Source: Candidatus Woesearchaeota archaeon
GTDB taxonomy: Archaea > Nanobdellota > Nanobdellia > SCGC-AAA011-G17 > JACPNG01
DNA length: 64,000 bases
Direction of reading: 5' to 3'
Assembly (NCBI GenBank): GCA_018303485.1
Contig: JAGVYC010000014.1
Location: forward strand, 425-64,424
Below are positions 12,277 through 49,432 of the stretch, in pieces. The notes under the pieces are model-generated. The model made no database searches. It was not told the DNA's origin and saw nothing but the letters and a program-made list of their open reading frames with translations. Position 1 is the first letter of the stretch, and every line of letters begins with the position of its first letter. Position numbers and translations under genes: made by a program.

Positions 12277-13815
12277 ATGGTTTTATTAAAAAATTTTACC
12301 CCAAGATTGTACCAGTCTAACATTTTAAAGGGCTGCATTGATAAGAATTGCCTTGTAATACTCCCTACAGGGATAGGCAAAACAGCTATAGCACTTTTGC
12401 TAGTTATAGAAAGGCTGAACAAATTTAAAAACTCAAAGGCATTATTATGCTCGCCAACAAAGCCGTTATGCCAGCAGCACCAAGAAACTTTCAAGGCTCA
12501 TACAGACATTGATAAATGTTTAATTTCACTTTATACAGGCCTAACTCAAGCAAATAAACGGGCAAAAATATTTTCAGAAAATAAAATTATAATAGCAACG
12601 CCACAAACAATAGAATCAGATTTGTTAAACAATCGCATAAATCTCAATGATTTTTCAGTTTTGATAATAGACGAAGCCCATCGCTCAAGAATGAAATATG
12701 CAAACACAATGGTCGCAAAAAAATACATTGAAACAGCAGAAAATCCAAGAATACTTGCTTTAACAGCCTCACCAGGCAATACAAAGGAAAAAATCAATGA
12801 AATATGCAGTAATCTGTTCATAGAGGAAGTCGAAATAAGGACTGACGAAGATGATGATGTCAAGCCTTACATGCAAAAAAAATCTATTGAATTCATAAAT
12901 ATAGAGCTAGAAAATGAAATCAAGAAAATATGTGATCTATTAAAAATAGTTTACAATGATAAATTAAGTTATTTAAAAAAGATTGGTTTTACAAAACCAA
13001 CAAGTTTAATCAATAAAAAGGACTTATTGTTGCTGCAAAAACAATTTCAAAAAGAATTGTCTAAAAGAAACCCTTCTGCATTCTTTGGTATTTCATTAAC
13101 AGCACAATTATTAAAACTCTCTCATTTGATAGAGCTGACAGAAACCCAAGGCTTGAAGCCATTAAAGAATTTTTTAGATAAATTAAAAACAGAGCAGACT
13201 AAAGCAGCAAAAATAATTACAAATACAAAAGACATTTTAGAGGTATACAAAATAACGCAGACACTCATCGAAAACAAAGTTCTTCATCCAAAGTTAGATA
13301 AGTTAAAAGAAATCATAAAAGAACAGTTTTTATCAAACAATAGCTCAAAAATGATAATATTTGCAAATTATCGCGATACAATTGAAGAATTGCTTGAAAA
13401 CATAAAAGAAATAGAAAACTGCCATCCTGTTAAGCTAATCGGCCATAAAAAAGGCATAACCCAGAAACAGCAGCTAGAAACTATAAAAAATTTCGAATCA
13501 GGCTTGTACAATTGTATTATTACAACATCAATTGGCGAAGAAGGCTTGTCAATAGGTACTCTAGACATAGCAATCTTTTACGACAATGTTCCAAGTGCAA
13601 TACGCAAAATTCAAAGAGAGGGTAGAGTCGCAAGAACAAAGCCAGGAAAGATAATATATCTCGTAGCAAAAAATACAAGAGACTCTGCCTATTACTGGAA
13701 ATCAAAAAGGGATGAAAAAACCATGAAGAAAACCATAGCTAATATAAAAACAAACTTTGAAAAACAGCAGTCATTGGCAAATTTTACAAAAAATGAAAGT
13801 AATAATAGATTATAG
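12277..13815 (+). CDS. hef: Hef-like SF2 helicase (helicase module of Hef/XPF)
   Basis: Walker A 'LPTGIGKTAIA', DEAH box 'IIDEAHRS', helicase motif VI 'QREGRVAR'; 512 aa. Confidence 0.85.
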   Translation: MVLLKNFTPRLYQSNILKGCIDKNCLVILPTGIGKTAIALLLVIERLNKFKNSKALLCSPTKPLCQQHQETFKAHTDIDKCLISLYTGLTQANKRAKIFSENKIIIATPQTIESDLLNNRINLNDFSVLIIDEAHRSRMKYANTMVAKKYIETAENPRILALTASPGNTKEKINEICSNLFIEEVEIRTDEDDDVKPYMQKKSIEFINIELENEIKKICDLLKIVYNDKLSYLKKIGFTKPTSLINKKDLLLLQKQFQKELSKRNPSAFFGISLTAQLLKLSHLIELTETQGLKPLKNFLDKLKTEQTKAAKIITNTKDILEVYKITQTLIENKVLHPKLDKLKEIIKEQFLSNNSSKMIIFANYRDTIEELLENIKEIENCHPVKLIGHKKGITQKQQLETIKNFESGLYNCIITTSIGEEGLSIGTLDIAIFYDNVPSAIRKIQREGRVARTKPGKIIYLVAKNTRDSAYYWKSKRDEKTMKKTIANIKTNFEKQQSLANFTKNESNNRL

Positions 13816-14452
13816 GGAAAGGAAATCTGGGATAATTAGGGAACTTGCAAAGCATGATATTGAAGTGGACGAAAAACAGCTCTTAATTGGAGATTTCATA
13901 ATACAAACAAAAGATAAAGACAACAACACCATTAACCTCTGCATAGAAAAAAAGACCCAGGAAGATTTCCTAAATTCCATAATAGACAGGAGGCTATTAA
14001 AACAATTAATAGACATGAAAGAACATTTTCAAAACCAGCTTTTGATAATAGAAGGTTCAAAAAACCTATACTCTATGAGAAATTTTCACCCGAATGCAAT
14101 CCGTGGCATTCTTGCAACAATATCAGTCGACTTGAAAATACCAATAATAACAACAAGGGCTGTAGCAGATACAGCTGCATTTATAGCCACCATAACAAAA
14201 CGGCTTGAAAAACCTCGCTCAGAAATAAGTATATTAAAAAAAAGAAAGCCATTAACATTAAAAGAACAGCAGGAATTTATAATTGAATCCTTGCCAGGCA
14301 TTGGCCCAACATTATCCAAATCTTTGCTTCAAGAATTTAAATCCATAAAAAACATAATCAATGCCAAAGAAAAAGATTTGAAAAATATTGATAAGATTGG
14401 CAATAAAAAGGCAAAAGGTATCTTAAATTTAATACATCAAAAGTACGAGTAA
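13757..14452 (+). CDS. ERCC4/XPF-type nuclease with tandem HhH (nuclease module of Hef)
   Basis: ERCC4 signature 'CIEKKTQEDFLNSIIDRRL' (ERKxxxD), 'GDFII', C-terminal 'LPGIGPTLSKSLL' HhH2; overlaps the helicase ORF by 59 nt in a different frame. Confidence 0.8.
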   Translation: MKNSSHWQILQKMKVIIDYRERKSGIIRELAKHDIEVDEKQLLIGDFIIQTKDKDNNTINLCIEKKTQEDFLNSIIDRRLLKQLIDMKEHFQNQLLIIEGSKNLYSMRNFHPNAIRGILATISVDLKIPIITTRAVADTAAFIATITKRLEKPRSEISILKKRKPLTLKEQQEFIIESLPGIGPTLSKSLLQEFKSIKNIINAKEKDLKNIDKIGNKKAKGILNLIHQKYE

Positions 14453-16957: not shown

Positions 16958-17029
16958 CTCTATAGTAATAATCAGGTATATTTAAACCTTTTAAAATCAC
17001 TTTATAATGATAAATAATTAATGTAACTC

Positions 17030-17385
17030 AATAGACCTAACCTTCCTATGGAAATATACATATATAATAAAAAATACACCCTCCCACCATTATTTCCTAT
17101 GGAACCTATAATCTATTGCATTTGTATATTCTTGCTTTTTATTTTATATTATAATCCAGAAAAAACAATAACATATCAAAAAACCCCTCCTCTAAGCCTA
17201 TATCTATCATAAAACATGATTCAATATTATATATATATTAAATATGAATTATAAATATATAAATAAAAATAGCCTTGTTATCATTTCATAGGAAACAAGA
17301 GGGTTAATTTCTAAAGGTAGTTAGTAAAGTTTATCAATAAACCACTATTTTAATCTCCATAGGAAACATAGGAGGGAGTATAATA
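17030..17385. other. chromosomal replication origin (oriC): AT-rich DUE flanked by four inverted ORB/mini-ORB elements
   Basis: TTCCTATGGAAA at 17043-17054 and G-string + TTCCTATGGAAC at 17077-17106 in one orientation; CATAGGAAAC+GAGGG at 17287-17303 and CCATAGGAAAC+GGAGGGAG at 17358-17378 inverted; >85% AT stretch 17107-17283 between; directly upstream of orc1/cdc6. Confidence 0.75.
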
Positions 17386-17433
17386 TTCCTAACTATAATA
17401 ATATTTAAATATAAAAATGGTTTTAAATAAAAA

Positions 17434-18645
17434 ATGGGGCAAAAGGGGTTAACTGGGTTTTTTGAAAATTTCTTAAAGCAAGAGCCTATATTTACTAATA
17501 AAAAAGTACTTCAGTCAACTTATACACCAAAAACAATACTTCATAGAGACGAGCAAATAGACCAATTAGCAAGCATTTTAGCGCCAATATTAAGGTTGGA
17601 AAGGCCATCAAATGTATTTGTATATGGTAGGCCAGGCTCAGGCAAGAGTTTGACAATACAGCATGTTTGCAGCAATATTCTCAGGGTTGCAGAAAAAAAC
17701 AAACTGGAAATAAAAATATTATACTTAAACTGTAAATTAAAGGGTGTTGCAGATACACAATACAGGTTAATAGCCAATCTAGCAAGGGAATTTGGCATAG
17801 AAGTTCCAGTAACAGGCCTACCAACAGATGAAATCTATAAATTATTCATCAAAGCCATTGAAAAAGAAAAAACATTATTAATCATTATCTTAGACGAAAT
17901 AGACCAGCTTGTCAAAAAAATAGGTGATGAGATATTATATAATTTAACAAGGATTAATACAGAATTAAAGAATACTGAAATCTCATTAATAGGCATTTCA
18001 AATGATTTAGTTTTTACAAATAGCATAGATCCAAGAGTAAAAAGCAGTCTTAGCGAAGAGGAGCTTATATTTCCACCATACAATGCATTGCAGCTCCAGG
18101 ATATATTAAGGCAAAGGGCAAAAATAGCATTTAGGAATGAAACCATAGAAGAAGGAGTCATTGAAAAATGTTCAGCATATGCAGCTAGAGAGCACGGTGA
18201 TGCGCGAAGGGCGCTTGAACTTTTAAGAGTCGCAGGAGAGATCTCAGAAAGAAAAGGAAAAACAAACATCAAAATAACAGACATAGACGAAGCAGAAGAA
18301 AAAATAGACAAAGATACAGTAATAGATATTATAAACACCCAGCCAAAACAATTCAAACTAGTTCTTTATTCAATAACAAAGATACATTTTTCCTCCACCA
18401 ATACCCCTATATTTACAGGCGAGATTTATGATATGTACAAAGAAGCATGCTTCAAAGTTGGCTTAAGACCTTTAACACAAAGAAGAGTCAGTGATATCAT
18501 AGCAGAGATGGACATGCTTGGCATTATAACGACCAGAGTAATTAGCAAGGGCCGCTACGGCAGGACAAGAGAAATTTGCCTTGCCATTTCAGATTCAATA
18601 ATTAACAATGTAAGCAATATATTAAAAGAGGGATTGTCATTATGA
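17434..18645 (+). CDS. cdc6: Orc1/Cdc6 replication initiator
   Basis: Walker A 'GRPGSGKS', AAA+ lid, C-terminal winged helix; 403 aa; adjacent to ORB cluster. Confidence 0.9.
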   Translation: MGQKGLTGFFENFLKQEPIFTNKKVLQSTYTPKTILHRDEQIDQLASILAPILRLERPSNVFVYGRPGSGKSLTIQHVCSNILRVAEKNKLEIKILYLNCKLKGVADTQYRLIANLAREFGIEVPVTGLPTDEIYKLFIKAIEKEKTLLIIILDEIDQLVKKIGDEILYNLTRINTELKNTEISLIGISNDLVFTNSIDPRVKSSLSEEELIFPPYNALQLQDILRQRAKIAFRNETIEEGVIEKCSAYAAREHGDARRALELLRVAGEISERKGKTNIKITDIDEAEEKIDKDTVIDIINTQPKQFKLVLYSITKIHFSSTNTPIFTGEIYDMYKEACFKVGLRPLTQRRVSDIIAEMDMLGIITTRVISKGRYGRTREICLAISDSIINNVSNILKEGLSL

Positions 18646-20294
18646 AAGGTGCAGTAAACATATTTCTAGAAAATGATTTTTTGCCCTCCCCTGACATAAT
18701 AAAGGATATTAAAAATATCCCATCAAAAGAGATAATTGAAGCGATACAAAAAAACATAGAATTCCCAGAAAAATTATTAGTAATAAACAAAGACATAATA
18801 GCAATAATTCCAAAATTATCAGAAAAGGCAGACATCAATTGGGCAGAGTTTGAAAAAGCAAAAGTCATGATAGAAAAAGGCAAAATAGATAAAACCTATA
18901 ACATATTCTTAGACCTTTTAACTTATAAAGTTGAAGATAAAAAAAAGAAAGAGCTTGATAAATTGCTGGAGGAAGTAAAAAAGGAAGAAAAACTCGACAT
19001 TAATGAAGAGCCGCCGACAGAAGCGCCATTAAATGTAATTATATTAAAAACATACAAAGATGATCCAAAGAAATTAGAAGTGGCAGATTTTGTAGAATAT
19101 TTTAAGATCCGTTATAATTTAATAAAAGAAGTTCTTCAAAACAGGCAAGAGATACAAGACCCAATATCAATCAACAGAATATTAACAAAAAAAGAAAAAG
19201 AAACAGTCGCTTTTATAGGCATTGTTTACAACAAAAAAACAACAAAAAACAACAACATACTTTTAACAATAGAAGACCCTACAGGATTAATAGACGTTCT
19301 TGTCAATAAAGAAGGAAAAGCAATAGAAAATGCGAGAAACATAGTTAATGATGAAGTAATTGGCATTGCTGGTGTTTATGGTGGCAGAGTAGTCTTTGCA
19401 ACAAACATTATTTTTCCAGACATACCATTAAGCAAGGAATTAAAAAAATGCGATGAAGAAGTATATGCCGCGTTTATTAGCGATTTGCATTTTGGCAGCA
19501 AGCTCTTTTTAAAAGATGATTTCATAAAATTCATAGAATGGATCAATGGAAAAACTGGAAGTTTCCTGCAAAAAAGAGTTTCTTCAAAAGTTAAATATTT
19601 ATTTATAATCGGTGATTCTGTAGATGGCGTTGGCGTTTACCCAAACCAAGACAAAGAGCTTGTTTTAAAAGACATCTCCCAGCAATATGAATTATGTGCA
19701 GAATATTTGGGCATGATAAGAAAAGATATAAAAATAATCCTTGCTCCAGGCCAGCACGATTCAATAAGAGTAGCAGAACCACAACCCCAGTTAGATAAAG
19801 AGTTTGCCAAATCATTATACGCATTGCCTAATGTAATTTTTGTAAGCAACCCCTCTCTTGTTAACATACATTCAAAAAAAGATTTTGAAGGCTTTAACGT
19901 CCTAATCTACCACGGTGCAAGCTATCATCACTATATAGATGAAATTGATTCATTGAGGCAGACAAACACAAGAGATAACCCAACAAATATACTAAAATTT
20001 TTACTGCAAAAAAGGCATTTGGCTCCATCTCATACATCAACAGTTTACATTCCTTCAAGGGATCACGACCCATTTTTTATAGATAAGATACCAGACCTAA
20101 TGTTATCAGGGGAAATGCATCGTTCAGATGTTGCAACATATAATAATATAACAATGATTAACTGCAGTTGTTTCCAAGGAAAAACGCCTTTCCAGGAAAA
20201 AACAGGCAATAACCCGCTACCTTCAAGGGTTCCAATTATGAACCTAAAAACAAGAGAAGTAAAAATACTGAACTTCTCGAGCGAAGAAGAATAA
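18642..20294 (+). CDS. DNA polymerase II (PolD) small subunit DP1
   Basis: Calcineurin/Mre11-like phosphoesterase motifs 'DLHFGS', 'IIGDSVDG', 'APGQHD', 'SGEMHRS'; N-terminal OB region; overlaps cdc6 stop by 4 nt. Confidence 0.85.
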   Translation: MKGAVNIFLENDFLPSPDIIKDIKNIPSKEIIEAIQKNIEFPEKLLVINKDIIAIIPKLSEKADINWAEFEKAKVMIEKGKIDKTYNIFLDLLTYKVEDKKKKELDKLLEEVKKEEKLDINEEPPTEAPLNVIILKTYKDDPKKLEVADFVEYFKIRYNLIKEVLQNRQEIQDPISINRILTKKEKETVAFIGIVYNKKTTKNNNILLTIEDPTGLIDVLVNKEGKAIENARNIVNDEVIGIAGVYGGRVVFATNIIFPDIPLSKELKKCDEEVYAAFISDLHFGSKLFLKDDFIKFIEWINGKTGSFLQKRVSSKVKYLFIIGDSVDGVGVYPNQDKELVLKDISQQYELCAEYLGMIRKDIKIILAPGQHDSIRVAEPQPQLDKEFAKSLYALPNVIFVSNPSLVNIHSKKDFEGFNVLIYHGASYHHYIDEIDSLRQTNTRDNPTNILKFLLQKRHLAPSHTSTVYIPSRDHDPFFIDKIPDLMLSGEMHRSDVATYNNITMINCSCFQGKTPFQEKTGNNPLPSRVPIMNLKTREVKILNFSSEEE

Positions 20295-20306: not shown

Positions 20307-23300
20307 ATGAAAGAGTATTTTGATAATATAAACAGCAATCTGGCAAGCATATATTCTATAGCAAGGGCCGCAAAGAAAATGGGCTATGATCCAATTGATG
20401 ATGTTGAAACACCTCTTGCAAAAAACATGGCTGAGCGCATAGTAGGCATAATTTCTATTGTCGCCCCGCAAATAAAAGATAGCAATATAGTAGAAAGGCT
20501 ATTTGAACTGGAAAAGGAATATGGCGCTCAAGATTGGAGGGTTGCATTAAAAATTTCTGAAGAGGTAGCAAATGAAAAATTCTGCAAGTTTTCCAGCAAG
20601 AAAGAAGCCATGGAAGTAGGCATAAGAGTAGGCATAGCATACATAACAGTGGGTGTTGTCGCTAGCCCAATAGAGGGTTTTGTAGAGCTGAAATTCAGAA
20701 AAAGAAAAGACAACAAGGATTACATGGCTTTGTTTTACTCTGGTCCCATAAGAAGCGCAGGCGGTACAGCCGGTGCAGTTTCAGTCTTGATTGCTGACTA
20801 TATTAGGTGCAAAATGGGTTTAAGCACTTATGATATTACAGACCTAGAAGTAAAAAGAACAGTAACAGAACTTTATGATTACCATGAAAAAGTTACCAAC
20901 TTGCAGTATCTCCCAACAGAAGAAGAAATTAAGTTTTTATTGGAAAGATTGCCTGTTCAAATAGATGGCGATCCAAGCGAGGATTATGAAGTTAGTAATT
21001 ACAAGGATTTGGAAAGAATAGAAACAAACAGGATAAGAAACGGCGTTTGCCTGGTCATTGGAGAATGCCTTGCTTCAAAAGCCCAAAAATTATTAAAGCA
21101 AATAAATTCATGGGGAGAAGATTTTGGCTTGGAACATTGGTTTTTCCTTGATGATTTTGTCAAGTTGCAAAAAAAATTAAAATCAGCCGGCGCAGTTAAA
21201 GACGAAAATATAAAATTAGCGCCAGATTATACATTTATTAAGGATATTGTTGCTGGCCGCCCGATCTTGACATACCCTCTTGCAACAGGTGGTTTTAGAT
21301 TAAGATATGGCAGAACAAGAACATCAGGATTTTCTTCTGATGCAATTCATCCGAGTACAATGGTAATATTGGACAATTACATTGCCATAGGAACTCAATT
21401 AAAAACAGAGCGCCCGGGAAAATCAACAGTAATCAGCATATGCGATAAATTAGAAGGTCCGATTGTCAAGTTAAAAAATGGAGATGTTTTGTTTATAGAA
21501 GACGTAGATTCAGCAATAAAAATAAAAAATGAAATAGACGAAGTTTTATTCCTCGGTGATATTTTAATCAACTATGGTGATTTTTTCAACAGAGCCCATA
21601 AACTAGTACCCTGTGGTTATAATGAAGAATGGTACGCATTGGAACTTGAAAAAATAAATGCAGAGGATGCAAGGTTAAAAGAAATTATAAACAACCCTTA
21701 TGCAAAATATGATATAGACGATATAACAAGGATTGCTATACAATATGACGTGCCATTACATCCAAGATATACGTATCATTGGAAGGATATAAGCTACAGG
21801 CAATTTACAAGTTTCCTTAATTGGTATAAAACATCAGCAGGTTCAAATGACAAAATAATCCTTCCATTAAACCAAAGCATAGTTGTTGAAATAGACTTAG
21901 ATCCAAAAAGAGTTTTAGAATTGCTGGGCATACCCCACAAAGTTATAGCAAAAGAGCACATTATAATAGAAGGCGATGATGCAAAAGCAGTATTGTTTTA
22001 TTTCCGTAATCTTGACGTCTTTGAATTTGATGATGACAAAGATGTTTTATCAATAATAAACAAGCTTGCAGGCGTTAAAATAAGGGACAAATCAGGAACT
22101 TTCATAGGAGCAAGAATGGGCAGGCCGGAAAAAGCAAAAATAAGAAAATTAACAGGCAGCCCGCAAGTTCTTTTTTCAGTAGGCAAAGAAGGAGGCAAGA
22201 TGCGCAACCTTCAGGAAACATTGAAAATAGGCAAAATAGTAGCTGATTTTCCATTAAGATACTGTGAAACTTGCAGCAGGGAAACAATCTATCCAATATG
22301 CGAAAGCTGCAGCCAAAAAACAAAGCAAAATTATTACTGCTTTCACTGCAAAAAAACATACAATATACCTTGTTCTATGCATGAATCAGTCAATCATAAA
22401 TCAACTGAAATTGATATTAACTACTATTTCAAAAAAGCACTTGAAAAACTTAATTTAAGCGAATATCAGGAAATGATAAAGGGGGTTAGAGGCATTTCCA
22501 ATCAAGATAGCATACCAGAGCATTTGGTCAAGGGCATTCTAAGAAGCAAATACAACCTTTATGTAAACAAAGATGGCACAATAAGGTATGATATGACTGA
22601 GATGGCAATAACACATTTCAAGCCAAAAGAAATTGGAACTGGCATAGACACATTAAAAAAATTAGGATATACAAAAGATATTCATGGCAATGATTTAACA
22701 AATAACTCTCAAATCTTGGAGCTAAAACCACAAGATGTAATATTGCCAGCATGCAAAGAAAGTCTTGAAGAAGGTGCTGATGAAGTCCTTTTCAGGGTTT
22801 CAAAATTCATAGATGAGCTTTTAGTCAAGCTTTACAAGCAGAAAGAATTTTACAATTTAAAATCAAAAGAAGACTTAGTTAGCCATTACATAGTCGCAAT
22901 ATCCCCGCATACATCAGCAGGAATGGTCGGAAGAATAATAGGATTTTCAAAAACACAAGGATTTTTTGCGCACCCACTTCTACATAGTATTCTTAGGCGC
23001 GACGCAGATGGCGATGAGGCCTGCGTGATTCTTTTGATGGACTCACTCCTAAATTTTTCAAGAAAATTCCTGCCCCATAGCCGAGGATCTACACAAGACG
23101 CCCCATTAGTTCTTACATCAACATTAATCCCAAAAGAAGTTGATAACATGATTTTTGACATGGACATTGCCTGGAAATATCCCCTCGAGCTCTATGAAGC
23201 GGCATTAGAATATAAAAATCCATGGGAGGTTAAGATAGAAAAATTCGGCGATAATCTGGATACAGAAAAGCAATATTCTGGCCTTGGATTTACAATGGAC

Positions 23301-23750
23301 ACAGATGATTTAAACAATGGCATAAGGCATAGTGCTTATAAGTCAATTCCTTCAATGAGGGATAAAGTTCGGGGGCAGATGGTTATCGCAGAAAAACTTC
23401 GTGCTGTTAATGAAGATGATGTTGCTCGTTTGCTAATAGAAAGGCATTTTATACGTGATATCAGGGGAAACTTAAGAAAATTCTCCCAGCAGGAATTTAG
23501 GTGTGTTGCATGCAATGAAAAATATAGAAGGCCGCCTTTAATGGGCAGATGCTTGAAATGCAACGGCCGTTTAATATTCACGATTGCAGAAGGCAGCATA
23601 GTGAAATATTTAGAGCCAAGCTTTGATCTTGCAGAAAAATATACATTACCACCATACCTAAACCAGGTTTTGCACATAACAAGGAAAAGAATAGAAAGCA
23701 TCTTCGGCAAAGATCCTGAAAAACAAGAAGGCCTTACAAAATGGTTCTAA
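20307..23750 (+). CDS. DNA polymerase II (PolD) large subunit DP2
   Basis: 1147 aa; Cys4 clusters 'CETCSRETIYPICESC' and 'CVACNEK...CLKCNG'; follows DP1 as in Thermococcales oriC-cdc6-polD arrangement. Confidence 0.85.
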   Translation: MKEYFDNINSNLASIYSIARAAKKMGYDPIDDVETPLAKNMAERIVGIISIVAPQIKDSNIVERLFELEKEYGAQDWRVALKISEEVANEKFCKFSSKKEAMEVGIRVGIAYITVGVVASPIEGFVELKFRKRKDNKDYMALFYSGPIRSAGGTAGAVSVLIADYIRCKMGLSTYDITDLEVKRTVTELYDYHEKVTNLQYLPTEEEIKFLLERLPVQIDGDPSEDYEVSNYKDLERIETNRIRNGVCLVIGECLASKAQKLLKQINSWGEDFGLEHWFFLDDFVKLQKKLKSAGAVKDENIKLAPDYTFIKDIVAGRPILTYPLATGGFRLRYGRTRTSGFSSDAIHPSTMVILDNYIAIGTQLKTERPGKSTVISICDKLEGPIVKLKNGDVLFIEDVDSAIKIKNEIDEVLFLGDILINYGDFFNRAHKLVPCGYNEEWYALELEKINAEDARLKEIINNPYAKYDIDDITRIAIQYDVPLHPRYTYHWKDISYRQFTSFLNWYKTSAGSNDKIILPLNQSIVVEIDLDPKRVLELLGIPHKVIAKEHIIIEGDDAKAVLFYFRNLDVFEFDDDKDVLSIINKLAGVKIRDKSGTFIGARMGRPEKAKIRKLTGSPQVLFSVGKEGGKMRNLQETLKIGKIVADFPLRYCETCSRETIYPICESCSQKTKQNYYCFHCKKTYNIPCSMHESVNHKSTEIDINYYFKKALEKLNLSEYQEMIKGVRGISNQDSIPEHLVKGILRSKYNLYVNKDGTIRYDMTEMAITHFKPKEIGTGIDTLKKLGYTKDIHGNDLTNNSQILELKPQDVILPACKESLEEGADEVLFRVSKFIDELLVKLYKQKEFYNLKSKEDLVSHYIVAISPHTSAGMVGRIIGFSKTQGFFAHPLLHSILRRDADGDEACVILLMDSLLNFSRKFLPHSRGSTQDAPLVLTSTLIPKEVDNMIFDMDIAWKYPLELYEAALEYKNPWEVKIEKFGDNLDTEKQYSGLGFTMDTDDLNNGIRHSAYKSIPSMRDKVRGQMVIAEKLRAVNEDDVARLLIERHFIRDIRGNLRKFSQQEFRCVACNEKYRRPPLMGRCLKCNGRLIFTIAEGSIVKYLEPSFDLAEKYTLPPYLNQVLHITRKRIESIFGKDPEKQEGLTKWF

Positions 23751-31633: not shown

Positions 31634-33295
31634 ATGTTCGAAAAAGAAATAATACGACTTTTAAAAAAAGAGACAAAACAAAAAAATATAACATTGGAAA
31701 TACCACCAAATCCAGATCTTGGAGATTTTGCATTCCCATGCTTTATTCTGGCAAAACAGCATCAAAAAAACCCTAATGAAATAGCCTTAGAGCTTTCTAT
31801 GAAAATAAAGCCAACAGAGCTATTAGAAGCAATTGTGCCAAAAGGCCCATACTTAAATTTCTTCTTAAATAGATCAAAACTCTCAGAATTAACATTAAAA
31901 TCAATATTAAAAGAAAAAGACAAGTACGGCTCTTATTTAGTGGGAAAAGGAAAAACAGCGTTAATAGAACATACAAGCATTAACCCAAATGCTGCCCCAC
32001 ATGTGGGCAGAGCCAGAAACGCAATAATAGGTGATTCTATAACGAGGTTGCTTAAATTTCAAGGTTATAAAACAGAAGTGCATTATTTTGTTAATGATGT
32101 AGGCAAGCAAATAGCAATTCTTGTCCTAGGTATCGGCAGCAAAAAACCAGAGTTTAAAAAACTCCTTAATATTTATTCAAAAACGTACAATAAAATAAGA
32201 AAAAGCAAAAAATTAGAGCAACAGGCATTCATTTTATTAAAAAAGTTTGAAGAAGGCGATAAAGAAACTATTAAAAGATTCAATCATGTAGTTGATATCT
32301 GCATTAAAGGCCAGATAGAGACATTATCGAAATTAAATGTAAAATATGATGTATTCGATTATGAATCAAAATACTTATTTGATAAGAAAATAAAAGAGAT
32401 TTTAGCTAAATTAGAAAAAACAAACCAGCTTATAACGGATAAAGATAATAGAAAAGTACTCAATTTATCTAGCTTTAATTTGCCAACAAAAGAGCCATAT
32501 TTTGTATTAACAAGGAGCGACAATACTTCTTTATACAGTTTAAGAGATATAGCTTATACATTAGATAAGATAAAGAAATCTAAAACAAAAAACATCATTG
32601 TTCTTGGAGAGGATCAAAAGCTGTATTTTCAGCAGATAAAAGCCGCATTATCATTATTAAAACAGCAAGCTCCCCAAGTAATTCATTATTCGCATATACT
32701 GCTTGCCGGAGGCAATAAAATGTCAACAAGGACAGGAGATGTAGTTTTGCTAGAAGATTTTATTAAAGAAGCAGTAAAGAAGGCAGAAAACGAGCTTAAA
32801 AAAAGGAAATCAAGGAATATTAAAAAAATAGCCTCAGTAATAGGTATAGGTGCTGTTAAATATTCCATACTGAAGGTTTCCCCTGATAAAAACATAGTCT
32901 TTGATTGGGATTCAGCATTATCCTTTGAAGGTGATACATCTCAGTATATACAATATGTCTATGCAAGAGCCTCTTCAATATTAAAAAAAGCAAAAATAAA
33001 TCATAGTAATCCAAATTACCTTATGATTTCATTACCAGAGGAAATAAATCTAATAAACAAGCTTTACAAGTTTCCAGAAACAGTATACAAGGCCACAATA
33101 GAACTAAAGCCTTATATAATAGCAAATTACTTGTATCAATTAGCCCAGATATTTAATGATTTTTACCATAAATGTCAATGTATTTCTGAAGATAGAGAAT
33201 TAACAAAAACACGTTTAGCAATTGTTGCAGCAACAAGGCATGTTATCAAAAATGGTTTGAATATTTTAGGTATAGATGTTACAGAAAAAATGTAA
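31634..33295 (+). CDS. argS: arginyl-tRNA synthetase
   Basis: 'HVGRARNAIIGDS' HIGH-region, 'KMSTRTGD' KMSKS-variant, C-terminal anticodon-binding DALR-like region; 553 aa. Confidence 0.9.
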   Translation: MFEKEIIRLLKKETKQKNITLEIPPNPDLGDFAFPCFILAKQHQKNPNEIALELSMKIKPTELLEAIVPKGPYLNFFLNRSKLSELTLKSILKEKDKYGSYLVGKGKTALIEHTSINPNAAPHVGRARNAIIGDSITRLLKFQGYKTEVHYFVNDVGKQIAILVLGIGSKKPEFKKLLNIYSKTYNKIRKSKKLEQQAFILLKKFEEGDKETIKRFNHVVDICIKGQIETLSKLNVKYDVFDYESKYLFDKKIKEILAKLEKTNQLITDKDNRKVLNLSSFNLPTKEPYFVLTRSDNTSLYSLRDIAYTLDKIKKSKTKNIIVLGEDQKLYFQQIKAALSLLKQQAPQVIHYSHILLAGGNKMSTRTGDVVLLEDFIKEAVKKAENELKKRKSRNIKKIASVIGIGAVKYSILKVSPDKNIVFDWDSALSFEGDTSQYIQYVYARASSILKKAKINHSNPNYLMISLPEEINLINKLYKFPETVYKATIELKPYIIANYLYQLAQIFNDFYHKCQCISEDRELTKTRLAIVAATRHVIKNGLNILGIDVTEKM

Positions 33296-33341
33296 ATTCC
33301 AACACAATAACCTTTAAATAACCCTCCAATATAGCAATTAA

Positions 33342-33776
33342 ATGCCAATAATAAGTTTTAATTATGGTAAAATGTTAATAGAAAAGAAAAAAGACCAAAT
33401 AAAAGGGGATGTAAAAGTAAAAAACGATCTGGTTTTACAATCTTTGACATTAACAGACATAGATATTGGAAAGAAAAAACAAGAGGTAATAAAGTTAAAT
33501 TTTGAATTCCTTACAGAATACCAACCAGGTCTCGGTAATATAAGCATTGGTGGTACAATATTATTTTTAGAATCTGCAGATAATATAAAATTGATAACTG
33601 ATATGTGGAAAAAAGAGAAAAAAATACCTCAGCAGTTCGCTGCCAATATTATAAATGTTATTCTTACAAAATCAAATATTAAGGCATTAGAATTGTCTCA
33701 ATCGGTCAATCTCCCGCCTCATATCCGTTTGCCAATGATACTTCCTAAACAGGATTTTAAGAATTATATAGGCTAA
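33342..33776 (+). CDS. hypothetical protein (144 aa)
   Basis: ORF only; first gene of the AT-rich accessory segment. Confidence 0.4.
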   Translation: MPIISFNYGKMLIEKKKDQIKGDVKVKNDLVLQSLTLTDIDIGKKKQEVIKLNFEFLTEYQPGLGNISIGGTILFLESADNIKLITDMWKKEKKIPQQFAANIINVILTKSNIKALELSQSVNLPPHIRLPMILPKQDFKNYIG

Positions 33777-33797
33777 TTGTTCATTCATTCACATCTT

Positions 33798-33824
33798 ATG
33801 CACACTCTGTGCACACTCTGTGCA
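33798..33824 (+). repeat. 11-nt direct repeat TGCACACTCTG x2.5
   Basis: tgcacactctg tgcacactctg tgcac read directly, upstream of the probable start of paralog A. Confidence 0.9.
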
Positions 33825-33854
33825 CGTAATGCAGTTATAACCTTATTACTTAAA

Positions 33855-34415
33855 ATGGGCAATGACTTAAAAAACCTAAAGAATGACTTAAAAGTCTCTT
33901 TTTCTAAGGCAAAAGAACATATAATCTCTCTAGAAAGCCAGATTATCGAGCTAAAGTATCAGATTTTAGAGATAAAATCCCTTCTTAATGACTTGAAACC
34001 AACAAAAACACCACATTCACTATTTCCATCAGAAGTAAGTTCCAAAGGAAATGAAGGGGTTCATTCATTCATTCATTCAGTTATTCATTCAAACATTCAC
34101 ACATCAAACACACAAGATTTGTTAAAAACTATGACAAAACAAGAGGTATTAGTTCTATTAACAATAGCTCAATTAGAAGAAGAATTGCATAATATAACTT
34201 ACCCAGATATAGCTAATAAATTAAAACTCTCACAAGGATGTATCAGGAGCTATATTACTTCGTTAATCCGCAAAAATGCACCCATATACAAAGAAAAATA
34301 CAATAATAAAATAACAATCATCAAAACAAACCCTCATTTTAAGTCAATAAACAAGCAAGTTTTAATTGATGCATTCTATAAAGTAGATACTCATCAGAAG
34401 AGGCTATTCGAATGA
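33855..34415 (+). CDS. coiled-coil + C-terminal winged-helix protein (paralog A); start taken at internal Met
   Basis: ORF opens at 33777 but first 26 codons overlap an 11-nt direct repeat and (TTCA)3; C-terminal 'LSQGCIRSYITSLIRK' HTH; contains in-frame (TTCA)5. Confidence 0.5.
   Translation: MGNDLKNLKNDLKVSFSKAKEHIISLESQIIELKYQILEIKSLLNDLKPTKTPHSLFPSEVSSKGNEGVHSFIHSVIHSNIHTSNTQDLLKTMTKQEVLVLLTIAQLEEELHNITYPDIANKLKLSQGCIRSYITSLIRKNAPIYKEKYNNKITIIKTNPHFKSINKQVLIDAFYKVDTHQKRLFE
34060..34079 (+). repeat. perfect (TTCA)5 tetranucleotide microsatellite inside a coding frame, continuing as degenerate TCAT-like units to ~34112
   Basis: ttcattcattcattcattca read directly; a shorter (TTCA)3 occurs at 33780-33791 just upstream of the same gene. 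Confidence 0.9.
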
Positions 34416-35033
34416 ACTCTCATTTTTAGCACGTTTAACCAGTATAGCACGTTCTTTTAATATCTCATTTTTCCTTTGTTCATCAATAAAGAATCTTTTT
34501 TTGCCAGTTCTTTCAATATATTCACATACTAAACTCTCATTTTTTTGTTTTATATTATTCATTTGTCCTCTAATTGTAGAACTATCTCTTCCAATCATAA
34601 CACTTAGATCTTCATAGCTAAGTTTTATATTAGTATTAAGTAATATATTCATTATAACCCTTTCCATGGGCGTTAAATTTTTAGTCCATTTATCCCCTAA
34701 TCTATCTGTTTGGACAATCATCACGTTCTGTTTCAAACGGACATCTGTCTGTTTATGTCCAAACGGCTGTTCAAACATATGCCCAATTGCAGTATTTTGT
34801 TTAAAATTAACCAACATATCACTAAATACACCTTCTAAATCATCAATACGTTTTTCTATTATAGCTATTTTTTTATCTTTTACGTCATGGTTCTCATTTA
34901 ATTTATTAAACATATTAATTAAATTTGTAATATCTGTTTTTACATTCGAAAAAGATTTATGCAGAGAAGAATTAATATTTCCTATTTTTTCACCATAATC
35001 ACTATAATCTCTTTTTTTTAACCACCAAAACAT
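34404..35033 (-). CDS. coiled-coil + C-terminal winged-helix protein (paralog B)
   Basis: 209 aa; 'LSYEDLSVMIGRDSSTIRGQMNNI' HTH aligns with paralog A; convergent with A, overlapping by 12 nt. Confidence 0.5.
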   Translation of the reverse strand: MFWWLKKRDYSDYGEKIGNINSSLHKSFSNVKTDITNLINMFNKLNENHDVKDKKIAIIEKRIDDLEGVFSDMLVNFKQNTAIGHMFEQPFGHKQTDVRLKQNVMIVQTDRLGDKWTKNLTPMERVIMNILLNTNIKLSYEDLSVMIGRDSSTIRGQMNNIKQKNESLVCEYIERTGKKRFFIDEQRKNEILKERAILVKRAKNESSFE

Positions 35034-35185
35034 AAATATTTACAACATAAACTCTTTAATAAACTTTATGCTTTTCTCACTAAAACTATATTAATTCAAA
35101 CAAACAACTATATTTACATCTAAATAGAAAAGTAAATAAATAACATTTCACTTAAAAAATTAAATATAATTAAAAAAAGATTAGT

Positions 35186-35950
35186 ATGAATGAATTCAAA
35201 TATAAAGAAAAAACATATTTAATTGATTCTTCAAAGAAGGTGCCAACATATGGCGATTTTGATGAAACAACAAATACGATTTATGTAGATAAAAACTCAC
35301 CGGGAATACTGCATGAAGGCATAGCAGTTCATGAAATAGAAGAGCTAAACATACTTAAAAAAGGCCATAGCTATGTTTTCTCACATAATTACGCTCAAAG
35401 GAAGGAGTTAGTATTCTATCAATCTAAATATGGAAAAGAAGAAGGTTTTAACTTGTTACTTAGGGAAGAAGAGTTAGTTCTAAATTATAATGTTCCAAAT
35501 CTAAGGATAAGAAGAGTAAAACTGCAAAAAAACACAAATATGCCTCTAGTTGAGATAAAATTAGTTAAAGAAGCATATTATAATGGCAAGAAATATAAGC
35601 TAGACACATCACAAAAACTAATTCATGCATTATCAGACATTTATGAAACAAAAAACACCATATACATAGACAAAGATGTCCCAGAAAAATTCTATGAGGG
35701 CCTAATAGTCTATGAAATAGAGCTAAGAAATGTGCTAAAACAAGGCTTAGGATACCTTAAAGCAAGGATCGAGGCCCATATAAATGAGCTGTTGTTTTAC
35801 CAGTCTAAATATGGATATGATGCTGGTATGAAAATAATGGAAGAAGAAAGAGAATTACAAACACAAATGTTCGCAAAAGAAAAAGAAGCACTATCTCAAG
35901 AAAATGTTCATAAAATAATCTATGAAAAAAATGAGGTTTTACCTGCTTAA
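35186..35950 (+). CDS. hypothetical protein with internal tandem duplication (~120 aa x2)
   Basis: 'NTIYVDKNSPGILHEGIAVHEIEELNILKKG...ELVFYQSKYGKEEG' repeats as 'NTIYIDKDVPEKFYEGLIVYEIELRNVLKQG...ELLFYQSKYGYDAG'. Confidence 0.5.
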   Translation: MNEFKYKEKTYLIDSSKKVPTYGDFDETTNTIYVDKNSPGILHEGIAVHEIEELNILKKGHSYVFSHNYAQRKELVFYQSKYGKEEGFNLLLREEELVLNYNVPNLRIRRVKLQKNTNMPLVEIKLVKEAYYNGKKYKLDTSQKLIHALSDIYETKNTIYIDKDVPEKFYEGLIVYEIELRNVLKQGLGYLKARIEAHINELLFYQSKYGYDAGMKIMEEERELQTQMFAKEKEALSQENVHKIIYEKNEVLPA

Positions 35951-36527
35951 AACATTCAATTAATTCTAAGATTATTTATTTAAAGATATTCTAATCATTG
36001 ATAAAAATATTTAATCTAGAATTTATAACACAAATTTTATTAATAACCAACATACCTTAATTACAAATGGTTGCTGTAAAAAAACACACTTTAGAAGAAA
36101 AAACAGAACATATGGTATATACTTTTTCAGGTACATTTAAAGATTTCAAATTAGGCGAACTTCCATTTGGAGGCTATTTTTTATATGAATCAAGAGGCCC
36201 ACAGATAGTTATATAGAAGGAGTATTAGTTGATCGCAGAGGTCGTTCTAAAATAATCAGGCAATTTTAAAGTTCTGTAGTAAATTATATTTTCTTAAAGA
36301 AGATACTTCATCTTATTGGGCGCCTATAAGCCACAATAAACAGGAATTTTAAGTATAATATAGTTCTTAAAATATATAATCATTGATTGTATAATCTATT
36401 TTAACATATAATTTTATCAATTATTAAAGTATTTAAGCTAAAATACCTATAAAGTTCGCACAAGATATATTGTTGCTACTTTAAGATTTGGAGTATAATT
36501 TATAAATATGTTCGCACAATCTGGCAT

Positions 36528-37391
36528 ATGGAAAAAATGGAATTTTTGAAAAGGCTTGAAACAGAATTGAAAATTTCTAAGAACTCACCCTATACAATCA
36601 GAAACTATCTTAGTGCAAATTCTAAGCTTTTAGACTTTATCAAAAAGAACCCGGAAGATATTGGTCAAGAAGATGTAAAGCTCTTTATGGCAGAGAATCT
36701 TACAAATAAATCTGCCATATCAAACATTTTATTTTTATCTGCAGTAAAATATTCCTATATCAATATCCTACATAAAGATCCCACTGCAGGGATTAAACGT
36801 CCAAAAAAAGAGAAGAGAATCCCTATTGTTTTAAACAAAGAGGAGATACAAAAGCTTTTAAACACCATACCAAATCCCAAAACAAAACTCATGTTGAGTT
36901 TAATGTATGCATGCGGTCTTAGGGTTTCTGAACTAGTAAACTTAAAAATACTAGATCTAGATTTTATGGAAAAAATAGGCCAAGTTCGCCAAGCCAAAGG
37001 GAAGAAAGATAGGATTTTTAATATTCCATACGTTTTATATGACAAATTAAATGAGCAGGCAAAAAAACAAAAAGAAAACAATCAAGAGTATTTGTTCTCC
37101 GGCCCAAAAGGTAAGTTAAGCATAAGGAACATAGAAAAGATAACTAGGCTGGCAGCTAAATCATCAGGGATACAGCAAAAAGTTCACTGCCATACTTTTC
37201 GCCATAGTTTTGCAACACATTTACTTGAAAATGGCATAGACATAAGAATCATCCAGGAACTGCTAGGCCATTCGAATCTTGCTACAACAGAAATATATAC
37301 TCATGTATCAAATGAAAAAATAAAAAAAGTCATATCACCATTAGATGCGATTATGCAAAATAAAGAAAACATACAAAATGAAAAGGAATAA
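36528..37391 (+). CDS. tyrosine site-specific recombinase (XerA/XerCD-like integrase)
   Basis: N-terminal SAM-like core-binding domain; catalytic 'HTFRHSFATHLL', 'LLGHSNLATTEIYTHV' (R..HxxR..Y). Confidence 0.85.
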   Translation: MEKMEFLKRLETELKISKNSPYTIRNYLSANSKLLDFIKKNPEDIGQEDVKLFMAENLTNKSAISNILFLSAVKYSYINILHKDPTAGIKRPKKEKRIPIVLNKEEIQKLLNTIPNPKTKLMLSLMYACGLRVSELVNLKILDLDFMEKIGQVRQAKGKKDRIFNIPYVLYDKLNEQAKKQKENNQEYLFSGPKGKLSIRNIEKITRLAAKSSGIQQKVHCHTFRHSFATHLLENGIDIRIIQELLGHSNLATTEIYTHVSNEKIKKVISPLDAIMQNKENIQNEKE

Positions 37392-38647: not shown

Positions 38648-38722
38648 GGGCCCGTAGCTCAGGTCGGTTAGAGCAGCTCGCTCTTAACGAGAAGGTCGTG
38701 GGTTCAAATCCCATCAGGCCCA
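38648..38722 (+). tRNA. tRNA-Lys (anticodon CUU)
   Basis: 75-nt cloverleaf: acceptor GGGCCCG, D-arm GCTC/GAGC, anticodon loop CTCTTAA, T-arm GTGGG-TTCAAAT-CCCAT, discriminator A; one C-A mismatch in acceptor (6:67) and G-A at 27:43. Confidence 0.8.
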
Positions 38723-48139: not shown

Positions 48140-49432
48140 TCACTGGAAATTTCTCTTCTTATACTGCACAGGATTTTTTATATTTCTGCACAAAACATGA
48201 TTGCAGTTTACATTCAAATCCCTGTAATATGCCTCATTATTGCAGTTGGGCGGCATTATATCTTCTTTTTGCCTTCTATGCCAGCTTATCTGGCTTTTGA
48301 TATACCCTTCTTTCAGGGGTTCATAATTTTTCCCATTCCATTCCATAATCATCTTATCAATATCATCGAATTCATAGCCAACTTTTTTCAGATAAGTTAT
48401 TAAAACAAACAGCGCCCTTTTCCTTCCATCTGTTTTGACACCCTCTAATATCCTTGATATGCAAGGGGCAAATAAATCCGGCTTTAATGCCATTGTTGGC
48501 TTTTCATAAACTCTCTTTATTTTTCTAACTTCATTTTTGTCTAAATTCTTTTCATACCAGTCAAATGCCTGCACCATTAAGTTAGTGGCTTCTCCATCAG
48601 CAAGATTCTTGTTTAAGAACCTTATTTCTGTATTTACTTTGTCCATTTTTGCTTTGCTTATGTCAAATTTTAGAACATTTTTTTTGTCTATTGGTATGCT
48701 CACTAAACCACTTTTTTCATTCAATGAATAAGAGCACCTGAATAAATGCCTATGTGCTATCAAAACCGGATCTATGTCAACAACACAAAAAGGATTTAAT
48801 ACATTATTTGTCACTATTTCATTGAACTTTTTTCCAGTAATCTTCATTATCTCATCAATATTGCTTATTTTCATTATTTCTTTTCTTAGCTCATCCTTTA
48901 TCATGTTTTTCAAGTATAATGCTACGACCTTTGTTCCTTCTGGAAATAAAAACCTCATTTCTTTTTTATTTACGTACTTAGGAAATAACTCAAATGGAAC
49001 AATTATGTGGAATCCAGATCTTCCTGAGAATTTGATTCCCATGCCTGTTATATCATAAAACTCCAGGGCATCAATTATCAATTTTGCGCATATCTTTGAA
49101 TAATCAAGAAAATTACTGTCTACATCAAGCAATAAATCCCACCCAATTTTAAAGTCATTCAATGATTTTTTGTCATCTCTGCCAAGAACAAAGGGATCAC
49201 TCCATCTTTCTTCAGATATATGAAAAGATGTGGCTCCTTGCCTGGCAAGCTCTAAAACATCACCTTCAAACTGAAGTACATCCGGCCTTTTTCCATATCC
49301 TTTATCCCCGAATTTTACAGCAACTTCCCTATTCTTGGCTATGCTAACCATCTCTTTTTGAATGTCTTTTTTCGAGTAATACCTTAGTATTTTCTCATTC
49401 ATCATCATAAAATATATGTAATATATTGCCAA
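48140..49432 (-). CDS. DNA primase: PriS catalytic domain fused to a PriL-CTD-like 4-Cys module
   Basis: Catalytic 'LLLDVDSN' (DxD) and 'SGRSGFHIIV'; C-terminal ~110 aa carries C(73)C(12)C(4)C spacing resembling the PriL Fe-S domain; no separate priL seen in window. Confidence 0.7.
   Translation of the reverse strand: MAIYYIYFMMMNEKILRYYSKKDIQKEMVSIAKNREVAVKFGDKGYGKRPDVLQFEGDVLELARQGATSFHISEERWSDPFVLGRDDKKSLNDFKIGWDLLLDVDSNFLDYSKICAKLIIDALEFYDITGMGIKFSGRSGFHIIVPFELFPKYVNKKEMRFLFPEGTKVVALYLKNMIKDELRKEIMKISNIDEIMKITGKKFNEIVTNNVLNPFCVVDIDPVLIAHRHLFRCSYSLNEKSGLVSIPIDKKNVLKFDISKAKMDKVNTEIRFLNKNLADGEATNLMVQAFDWYEKNLDKNEVRKIKRVYEKPTMALKPDLFAPCISRILEGVKTDGRKRALFVLITYLKKVGYEFDDIDKMIMEWNGKNYEPLKEGYIKSQISWHRRQKEDIMPPNCNNEAYYRDLNVNCNHVLCRNIKNPVQYKKRNFQ

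Follow-up and report, generated by a model that had tools for sequence, protein, structure and literature searches.

Among archaeal replication origins, the closest described systems to the element considered here are oriC1 of Sulfolobus and oriC of Pyrococcus, both of which contain origin recognition boxes (ORBs). At Sulfolobus oriC1 the inverted ORB2 and ORB3 flank an AT-rich duplex-unwinding element (DUE), each is bound with polarity by one Orc1-1 monomer, and both are required for firing (PMC12141716). The locus described here lies in a 64,000-nucleotide stretch (hereafter the window) of contig JAGVYC010000014.1, from a Candidatus Woesearchaeota archaeon (assembly GCA_018303485.1), and consists of four ORB-like boxes within 17025-17383 together with the AT-rich spacer that they enclose, the last box lying 56 nt from the start of the gene for an Orc1/Cdc6 initiator (orc1). 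No description of ORBs, origins or skew in Woesearchaeota was found in the literature searched, in which ORB strings were matched by unrelated primer sequences only, and a 2026 preprint rotated 208 Nanobdellota genomes to ORC1 as 'the origin', with ORBs and skew untested there (10.64898/2026.05.13.725050). It is probable that the module is the orc1-linked ORB-DUE-ORB of the Woesearchaeales chromosome and the counterpart of the two origins named above. By analogy with other archaea, for which the prior favours an origin, it is also fairly likely that the module fires at all as an origin. A role as the dominant bidirectional start site is rather doubtful, since nucleotide composition argues against such a role over evolutionary time.

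Four ORBs and an AT-rich spacer upstream of orc1

All four elements reported in the initial annotation, two in each orientation, are present in the sequence: the minus strand carries E1 and E2, and the plus strand E3 and E4 (Table 1). When the G-string is read as the 3' side, the cores of all four are directed toward the spacer and the G-strings outward. The plus-strand reading of E1 is TTCCTATGGAA (17043-17053), and the core of E2 is the identical 11-mer at 17094-17104, one base away from the 17095-17106 originally given for it; the complement of its G-string, CCCTCCCACC, lies ahead of the core at 17079-17088 and points away from the DUE. A repeat search recovered direct pairs of box elements (D10, D11) and a 32-nt inverted pair formed by E2 and E4 (I1, 75% complementary), and of the eight copies of the 8-mer CATAGGAA in the window, counted on both strands, four fall within 330 nt at the box site. 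The TTCC-N3-GGAA dyad and the G-string of the boxes match the Pyrococcus ORB oligonucleotides (PMC1904270), which upholds their identification as ORB-like; in the form of core plus G-string, the box can be written TTCCATAGGAAAC-N3-GGAGGG.

For comparison, 80 loci were fetched from relatives with 55-69% Orc1 identity, and an ORB matrix (consensus tTTCCAtAGGAAATnaAGGgGTGgG) was built from the TCC-N3-GGAA sites with a G-rich tail in the regions upstream of their orc1 genes, nothing from the window being used. At a threshold of at least 12 bits, this matrix finds five matches in the window, against 0.42 expected from whole-window shuffles, and four of the five lie in 17025-17383. Shuffling the 476-nt intergenic region 2000 times gave a mean of 0.0015 matches and a maximum of one, where four are observed. 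At the same threshold, seven orc1-upstream regions outside the training set hold 3.67 matches per kb and the DNA around secY of Woesearchaeota (1.03 Mb in all) holds 0.0068 per kb, a specificity for the orc1-upstream module of roughly 500-fold over unrelated Woesearchaeota DNA. Given these two densities, the box is not frequent genome-wide, a possibility that had been raised against an origin from the outset; clustered ORBs were seen neither in the 1.03 Mb around secY nor elsewhere in the window.

The arrangement is conserved. Upstream sequence of 600 nt or more was available for 63 relatives. Of these, 59 carry a plus-strand ORB at -20 to -260 from orc1 and 50 a minus-strand (inverted) ORB at -150 to -700; 46 have both, and in several others the inverted ORB lies slightly farther out. 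The plus-strand ORBs of the relatives cluster at about -78 and about -150, positions occupied in the window by E4 (-78) and E3 (-149). In 42 of all 80 relatives a plus-strand ORB precedes the orc1 start by 65-101 nt, with a cluster at -75 to -83, and some relatives carry an extra ORB over the TATA region (-15 to -47). When the window was aligned with three relatives of 77% Orc1 identity, the core and G-string of E2, E3, E4 and the promoter block emerged as conserved islands separated by diverged sequence; the variant core ATTTCATAGGAAA of E3 is unchanged in all four sequences, and E1 is kept as TCCAAAGGAA in two of the three relatives. The next gene after orc1 in 74 of 74 relatives is DP1, which encodes the small subunit of DNA polymerase D (PolD), and the large subunit gene DP2 is downstream in 73 of 74. 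Since the left flank is variable while orc1-DP1-DP2 is fixed, synteny breaks exactly at the module.

Two readings of the boxes can be set against these observations. The first is that they are short repeats clustered by chance in an AT-rich intergenic region, which would be in keeping with the weak enrichment across the window of the 10-mer with one mismatch (11 matches, 5.9 expected). This is extremely improbable given the excess over the shuffled intergenic region, and it is refuted by the conservation of the box layout, in position and orientation, in about 80 relatives. The second is that the boxes are operators at which a transcription factor other than Orc1 acts on divergent promoters, given that the region, which contains the orc1 promoter, separates orc1 from a 77-aa open reading frame (ORF) that runs in the opposite direction, on the minus strand. 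However, the motif fits the ORB consensus, is tied to orc1 across the order and is almost absent elsewhere, and this reading is accordingly given very little weight.

The spacer between the two ORB pairs is a candidate DUE. In a nearest-neighbour stability scan, the weakest 40-nt duplex of the whole window is 17225-17264, between E2 and E3, with a free energy of -33.2 kcal/mol against a window mean of -49.1 (standard deviation 3.7), and the weakest 60-nt duplex is 17211-17270; the melting core of the spacer thus falls at about 17205-17275, directly left of E3. The earlier description of boxes inverted around a DUE agrees with this, as the spacer holds both of the weakest duplexes. Its description as almost pure A/T is correct in that the spacer is AT-rich and overstated in that its GC content is 19.2% and it contains a C-rich block, CCCCTCCTCTAAGCCT. 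This block does not match the Sulfolobus ucm sequence ATTATACAAAC, and no conserved Sulfolobus ucm was found at the module; the block could be a site for an accessory factor, comparable to ucm in position and unrelated to it in sequence. A stretch at about 17120-17130 resembles ucm (9 of 11 bases, by eye); close relatives do not conserve it, and it was treated as chance.

As a separate observation on the spacer, the contigs of 15 of the 80 relatives (L018, L020, L022-L024, L027, L031, L037, L045, L052, L056, L057, L062, L069, L081) end 88-263 nt upstream of orc1, within the inter-ORB spacer, where 1.45 would be expected. The spacer is an assembly break point, which could be owing to loss of coverage in AT-rich DNA or to population heterogeneity. 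The next-weakest duplexes of the window after the DUE are at 35034-35185 and 35951-36527, where GC content falls to about 12% per 100 nt; these stretches flank a 254-aa gene upstream of a tyrosine recombinase gene, and neither an ORB nor a change of skew was found in them.

The initiator encoded beside the boxes is of the Orc1-1 type, its best structure matches being Orc1-1 of S. solfataricus (2QBY_A, E 1.8e-105) and ORC1 of A. pernix (2V1U_A, E 8.2e-94), both of which were crystallised on ORB DNA. The wing RYGRTRE of the winged-helix domain and the recognition helix TQRRVSDII are conserved. The Orc1 protein has a counterpart of 100% identity that is assigned to a Candidatus Woesearchaeota archaeon and occurs on contigs of up to 90.6 kb from the Rifle aquifer. 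Orc1 binding, MCM loading and firing at the module are what we infer from these parts and their arrangement. At each of the four boxes an Orc1 monomer would bind in a fixed polarity, contacting the TTCC-N3-GGAA dyad through its winged-helix domain and the G-string through the initiator-specific motif of its AAA+ domain, and because the left and right ORB pairs are inverted, the bound proteins would face one another across the spacer. MCM would be recruited onto the spacer DNA by ATP-bound Orc1, and melting would be expected to begin in the weakest stretch, beside E3.

The same binding probably also regulates the orc1-DP1-DP2 operon, since the gap between the end of E4 and the conserved promoter/TATA block of orc1, which lies downstream of it, is 17-26 nt. 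In the alignment with the relatives of 77% Orc1 identity, this block, ATAATAAT.TTTAAATATAAAA, is invariant. The centre of the TATA box lies about 26 nt before the orc1 ATG, a spacing which suggests that the orc1 mRNA is leaderless. The order Orc1/Cdc6, DP1 and DP2, annotated initially as of the Thermococcales type, is supported by Pfam and by synteny.

Table 1. Coordinates of the boxes, the spacer and associated features in the window
Feature	Position	Strand	Sequence or property	Matrix score (bits)
E1, outer left ORB	17025..17058	-	core TTCCATAGGAA at 17043-17053; weak G-rich tail AGGTCT	16.3
E2, full ORB	17076..17109	-	GTTCCATAGGAAATAATGGTGGGAGGG; top score of the window	36.0
AT-rich spacer, candidate duplex-unwinding element	17107..17283		19.2% GC; lowest 0.34% of 177-nt windows	
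C-rich block	17184..17199		CCCCTCCTCTAAGCCT, within spacer; AAGCCT retained in 3 of 4 aligned sequences	
E3, inner right ORB, variant core	17279..17312	+	TTTCATAGGAAAC (17284-17296), then GAGGGTT (17299-17305)	12.1
E4, promoter-proximal full ORB	17350..17383	+	CTCCATAGGAAACATAGGAGGGAG; core CTCCATAGGAAAC at 17355-17367, G-string GGAGGGAG at 17371-17378	27.5
Putative orc1 promoter block	17395..17417	+	TATA box TTTAAATA at 17404-17411	
Orc1/Cdc6 initiator, Orc1-1 type	17434..18645	+	Pfam Cdc6_C, Cdc6_lid, AAA	
PolD small subunit DP1	18642..20294	+	Pfam DNA_pol_E_B; 4-nt overlap with orc1 stop codon	
PolD large subunit DP2	20307..23750	+	Pfam PolC_DP2 N-terminal, central and catalytic domains	
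Fifth, isolated ORB match	34035..34068	+	GTTCCAAAGGAAATGAAGGGGT; maximum 23.6 bits in 200 shuffles	24.0

Strand asymmetry on either side of the module

Where archaeal origins have been mapped, the polarity of the skew normally changes at those in use (PMC3269012), and a DPANN genome of the Diapherotrites has a cdc6-adjacent skew origin (PMC5905446). The module shares with oriC1-type origins repeated ORBs, their inversion around an AT-rich DUE, an adjacent orc1 and conservation in relatives. A compositional sign change at the site, which is a proxy for such origins and not a defining feature of them, was not found; the annotation as a replication origin is therefore borne out by anatomy and by conservation in about 80 relatives, and not by composition. 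The compositional results set out in this and the next paragraph weigh, together, against the module as a place where replication forks diverge. The raw cumulative GC skew does have a local minimum at 17-18 kb, as the initial annotation had anticipated, where mostly minus-strand genes give way to plus-strand genes. This minimum is an effect of gene orientation only: once orientation is removed, no switch remains near 17.2 kb, the outcome that had been named beforehand as speaking against an origin. The GC skew at third codon positions (GC3 skew), read on the coding strand, is +0.32 left and +0.22 right of 17.2 kb for minus-strand genes, and -0.01 and -0.06 for plus-strand genes. The plus-strand G excess at four-fold degenerate sites (X, with 95% bootstrap intervals) is -0.26 (-0.38 to -0.12) left of 17.2 kb, -0.21 (-0.36 to -0.14) over 17.2-44 kb and -0.16 (-0.22 to -0.09) over 17.2-64 kb. 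Intergenic skew, at -0.27 left and -0.21 right, likewise leaves the plus strand C-rich on both sides. When models were compared by weighted least squares over 66 genes, the residual sum of squares was 226 with no strand term, 102 with one strand term and 215 with a strand term mirrored at 17.2 kb, so that the mirrored model fits no better than none; a free breakpoint at 17.0-17.5 kb gave values of equal sign, -0.19 left and -0.14 right. No sign switch was found in the contig extended to about 73 kb.

The relatives behave in the same manner. Across 9-kb loci, the GC3 skew of orc1/DP1/DP2 follows that of left-flank genes when these share its strand (rho 0.82, p 8e-9) and not when they lie on the opposite strand (rho -0.12), which is the reverse of the pattern that a bidirectional origin predicts. 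With orthologues only, the skew of LonB, which lies left on the minus strand, is anticorrelated with that of DP2, which lies right on the plus strand (Pearson r -0.59, p 0.008, n=19). Two 21-kb loci have genes on both strands on each side: in L091, taken from the 737-kb record CP066683.1, X is -0.16 left and -0.32 right, and in L093 it is +0.40 left and +0.34 right, so that each keeps one sign across the module and the two have opposite signs relative to orc1. Among relatives generally, the two signs relative to orc1 occur about equally often (50:50). T is enriched on the strand that is rich in G (rho -0.76), as is usual for a replicative signature. When 32 long loci were scanned for change points, no clean sign switch emerged, and none was found in about 1.5 Mb of sampled loci (L007-L094, L098-L177). 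As a general trait, one strand of Woesearchaeota DNA is strongly enriched in G+T independently of gene orientation, the GC3 excess reaching about 0.6. Here the asymmetry runs unbroken for at least 64-73 kb, and from genome to genome it takes either sign with respect to orc1 and to the ribosomal-protein operon.

How far this asymmetry reports on replication can be judged from controls. Of 23 strongly skewed loci, 15 have the ribosomal-protein/secY operon on the G-rich strand and 8 do not, and consequently an independent link of the asymmetry to fork direction is not established. Left of the mapped oriC1 of S. acidocaldarius X is about 0, and right of it, the only side with the predicted sign, X is +0.10 to +0.12; in S. 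tokodaii the values of X are at most 0.07. The method has low power in the weakly skewed Sulfolobales, and the Woesearchaeota signal is several times stronger. Either, then, the asymmetry is non-replicative, or forks have not diverged at the module over evolutionary time.

The second of these options raises the possibility, put forward tentatively, that in Woesearchaeales the conserved ORB-DUE-ORB module is not where forks diverge, the chromosome being started elsewhere or copied non-bidirectionally. In the former case the cluster would bind Orc1 and forks from elsewhere would pass through it, leaving it as an autoregulatory operator, a rare backup origin, or both. In the window and in relatives alike, the asymmetry runs through the module without a break, its sign relative to orc1 differing between genomes, and E4 lies close to the promoter/TATA block, a region which an ORB overlaps in some relatives. 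There are also precedents: Thermococcus kodakarensis retains oriC and cdc6 and replicates without them (PMC5663688), and Haloferax mediterranei has a dormant origin (PMC4595724). Nevertheless, a dormant origin or operator, although the main rival explanation, is rather unlikely, and four points stand against it: first, an operator would need neither a distal inverted ORB 250-450 nt upstream nor the weakest duplex of the window, and both are conserved. Second, neither the 1.03 Mb of other Woesearchaeota DNA nor the rest of the window yielded an alternative ORB cluster. Third, ORC1 is reported as a single-copy core gene in Nanobdellota (preprint 10.64898/2026.05.13.725050). Fourth, the replicative nature of the asymmetry is not proven, given the distribution of the ribosomal-protein operon described above.

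In the latter case the module would be an origin from which replication is unidirectional or strand-asymmetric, one strand being 'leading' on both sides. The same-sign G+T enrichment on both sides adjoining the module in the window, L091 and L093 is what such a mode would produce, and asymmetry of uniform sign is known for strand-displacement replication, as in vertebrate mitochondrial DNA (PMC3269012). However, a built-in polarity would not yield a sign that is divided about evenly relative to the conserved orientation of the ORBs and orc1, and no structural difference was seen between origins of opposite sign; unidirectional replication of fixed polarity is disfavoured for this reason. We also know of no precedent for non-bidirectional replication in cellular chromosomes, and the probability of this scenario is considered slight.

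In summary, the identification of the module as an orc1-linked ORB-DUE-ORB brings with it an ORB consensus for the lineage that is compact (about 25 bp), fixed positions at -78 and -150, and a matrix of roughly 500-fold specificity. At this locus, a cumulative GC-skew minimum beside cdc6 misleads as a shortcut to the origin. If the asymmetry is replicative, a textbook-looking archaeal origin has been conserved without being the main start site, and if forks do not diverge at the module, the practice of taking ORC1 as the origin of DPANN genomes is undercut.

An intragenic ORB match and the surrounding genes

Besides the four boxes, the only other strong matrix match in the window is the isolated one at 34035 (Table 1), which lies in sense orientation within a gene for a coiled-coil and winged helix-turn-helix (HTH) protein of about 205 aa. 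This ORB is kept at the DNA level in three relatives (L092 at 2952, L094 at 4075 and L093 at 1681, each on the minus strand) and is directly followed by a tandem repeat with a 4-nt unit, which is (TCAT)n, (GCAC)n or (TCAC)n. Across four genomes neither the ORB nor the CA phasing changes at the DNA level, the surrounding linker not being conserved, and the ORB employs TCC and GGG codons in genomes of about 33% GC. It resembles a cis-acting DNA element inside a gene and may be an extra Orc1 site. Upstream of the same gene, whose probable ATG is at 33856, a run of TTCATTCATTCA and 2.5 direct copies of TGCACACTCTG occupy 33779-33826, and the TCAT repeat found there recurs within the gene after the ORB; these upstream repeats may be binding sites for the encoded winged-HTH protein.

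The gene belongs to a block comprising arginyl-tRNA synthetase (ArgRS), a 142-aa ORF, the 205-aa ORF with the ORB, a 206-aa ORF and a tyrosine recombinase (269-287 aa), which occupies 31634-37391 on the plus strand of the window. A mobile element at 33-37 kb was suspected from the recombinase, the unknown genes and the very AT-rich DNA, and was rejected because this block is conserved beside the origin in relatives. In L087-L094 the block lies left of the ORB module on the minus strand and in the window 14-20 kb to its right, so that it has been rearranged across the module; in L064, DP2 is inverted and lies on the left side of the module.

To the left of the module, Pfam identifies, besides the 77-aa ORF, a PRC-barrel protein, LonB and the Hef helicase and nuclease. 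The parts of Hef are split between overlapping separate ORFs on the plus strand, DEAD/Helicase_C at 12277-13815 and ERCC4 nuclease-HhH at 13757-14452. A 430-aa ORF at 48140-49432 on the minus strand is a fused primase with both PriS and PriL domains. The DP2 of one relative of 77% Orc1 identity (L089, 5912-7215 onward) has an intein (Intein_splicing and LAGLIDADG) in a 1625-aa product, and the DP2 of the window (1147 aa) is without one. A search for non-coding RNA with Rfam gave tRNA-Lys at 38648 as the sole match in the window and none in the box region. Two independent assemblies (ENA scaffold_955 and JGI C687J35174_10000730) stop about 425 nt past the left end of the window, which suggests a repeat or variable site there.

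Comparison with known origins

In the Thermococcales, and in Pyrococcus in particular, the ORBs have the TTCC-N3-GGAA core and G-string seen here ('TTCC' and 'GAA' being the core motifs described), an inverted ORB pair lies around AT-rich DNA directly upstream of cdc6, and the order is oriC-cdc6-dp1 (PMC1904270); the initiator gene is followed by DP1 and DP2 both in the Thermococcales and at the present locus. The differences lie first in the boxes themselves. The central triplet of the ORB is ATA here and AGT in Pyrococcus, and the G-string starts about 3-4 nt after GGAAAT, in contrast to about 8 nt in Pyrococcus, so that the ORB spans about 25 bp here and 34 bp there. Furthermore, the ORB/mini-ORB cluster within dp1 that is a trait of the Thermococcales has no counterpart in 18642-20294, where neither a match of at least 8 bits nor a core match was found; the isolated intragenic ORB at 34035 is in a different gene. 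Finally, the Pyrococcus skew is said, in work by Myllykallio and colleagues from 2000, to switch at oriC, whereas the module is without a switch.

Boxes upstream of an initiator gene need not mark an origin: in E. coli, DnaA boxes in the dnaA promoter, upstream of the initiator's own gene, serve autoregulation and the origin is elsewhere. This bacterial case differs in that the protein and the boxes are unrelated to those considered here and no DUE is flanked by inverted boxes.

The short ORBs of the module recall oriC1 of A. pernix, whose ORB is 22 bp (PMC1904270), a likeness in described length and not base by base, and the A. pernix initiator is closely related to the one encoded here. With Sulfolobus oriC1 the locus differs in gene neighbourhood and in the number of ORBs, four (two on each side) as against three. 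It agrees with Sulfolobus oriC1 in that an initiator of the Orc1-1 type is encoded beside the module and in that inverted ORBs are placed around a DUE.

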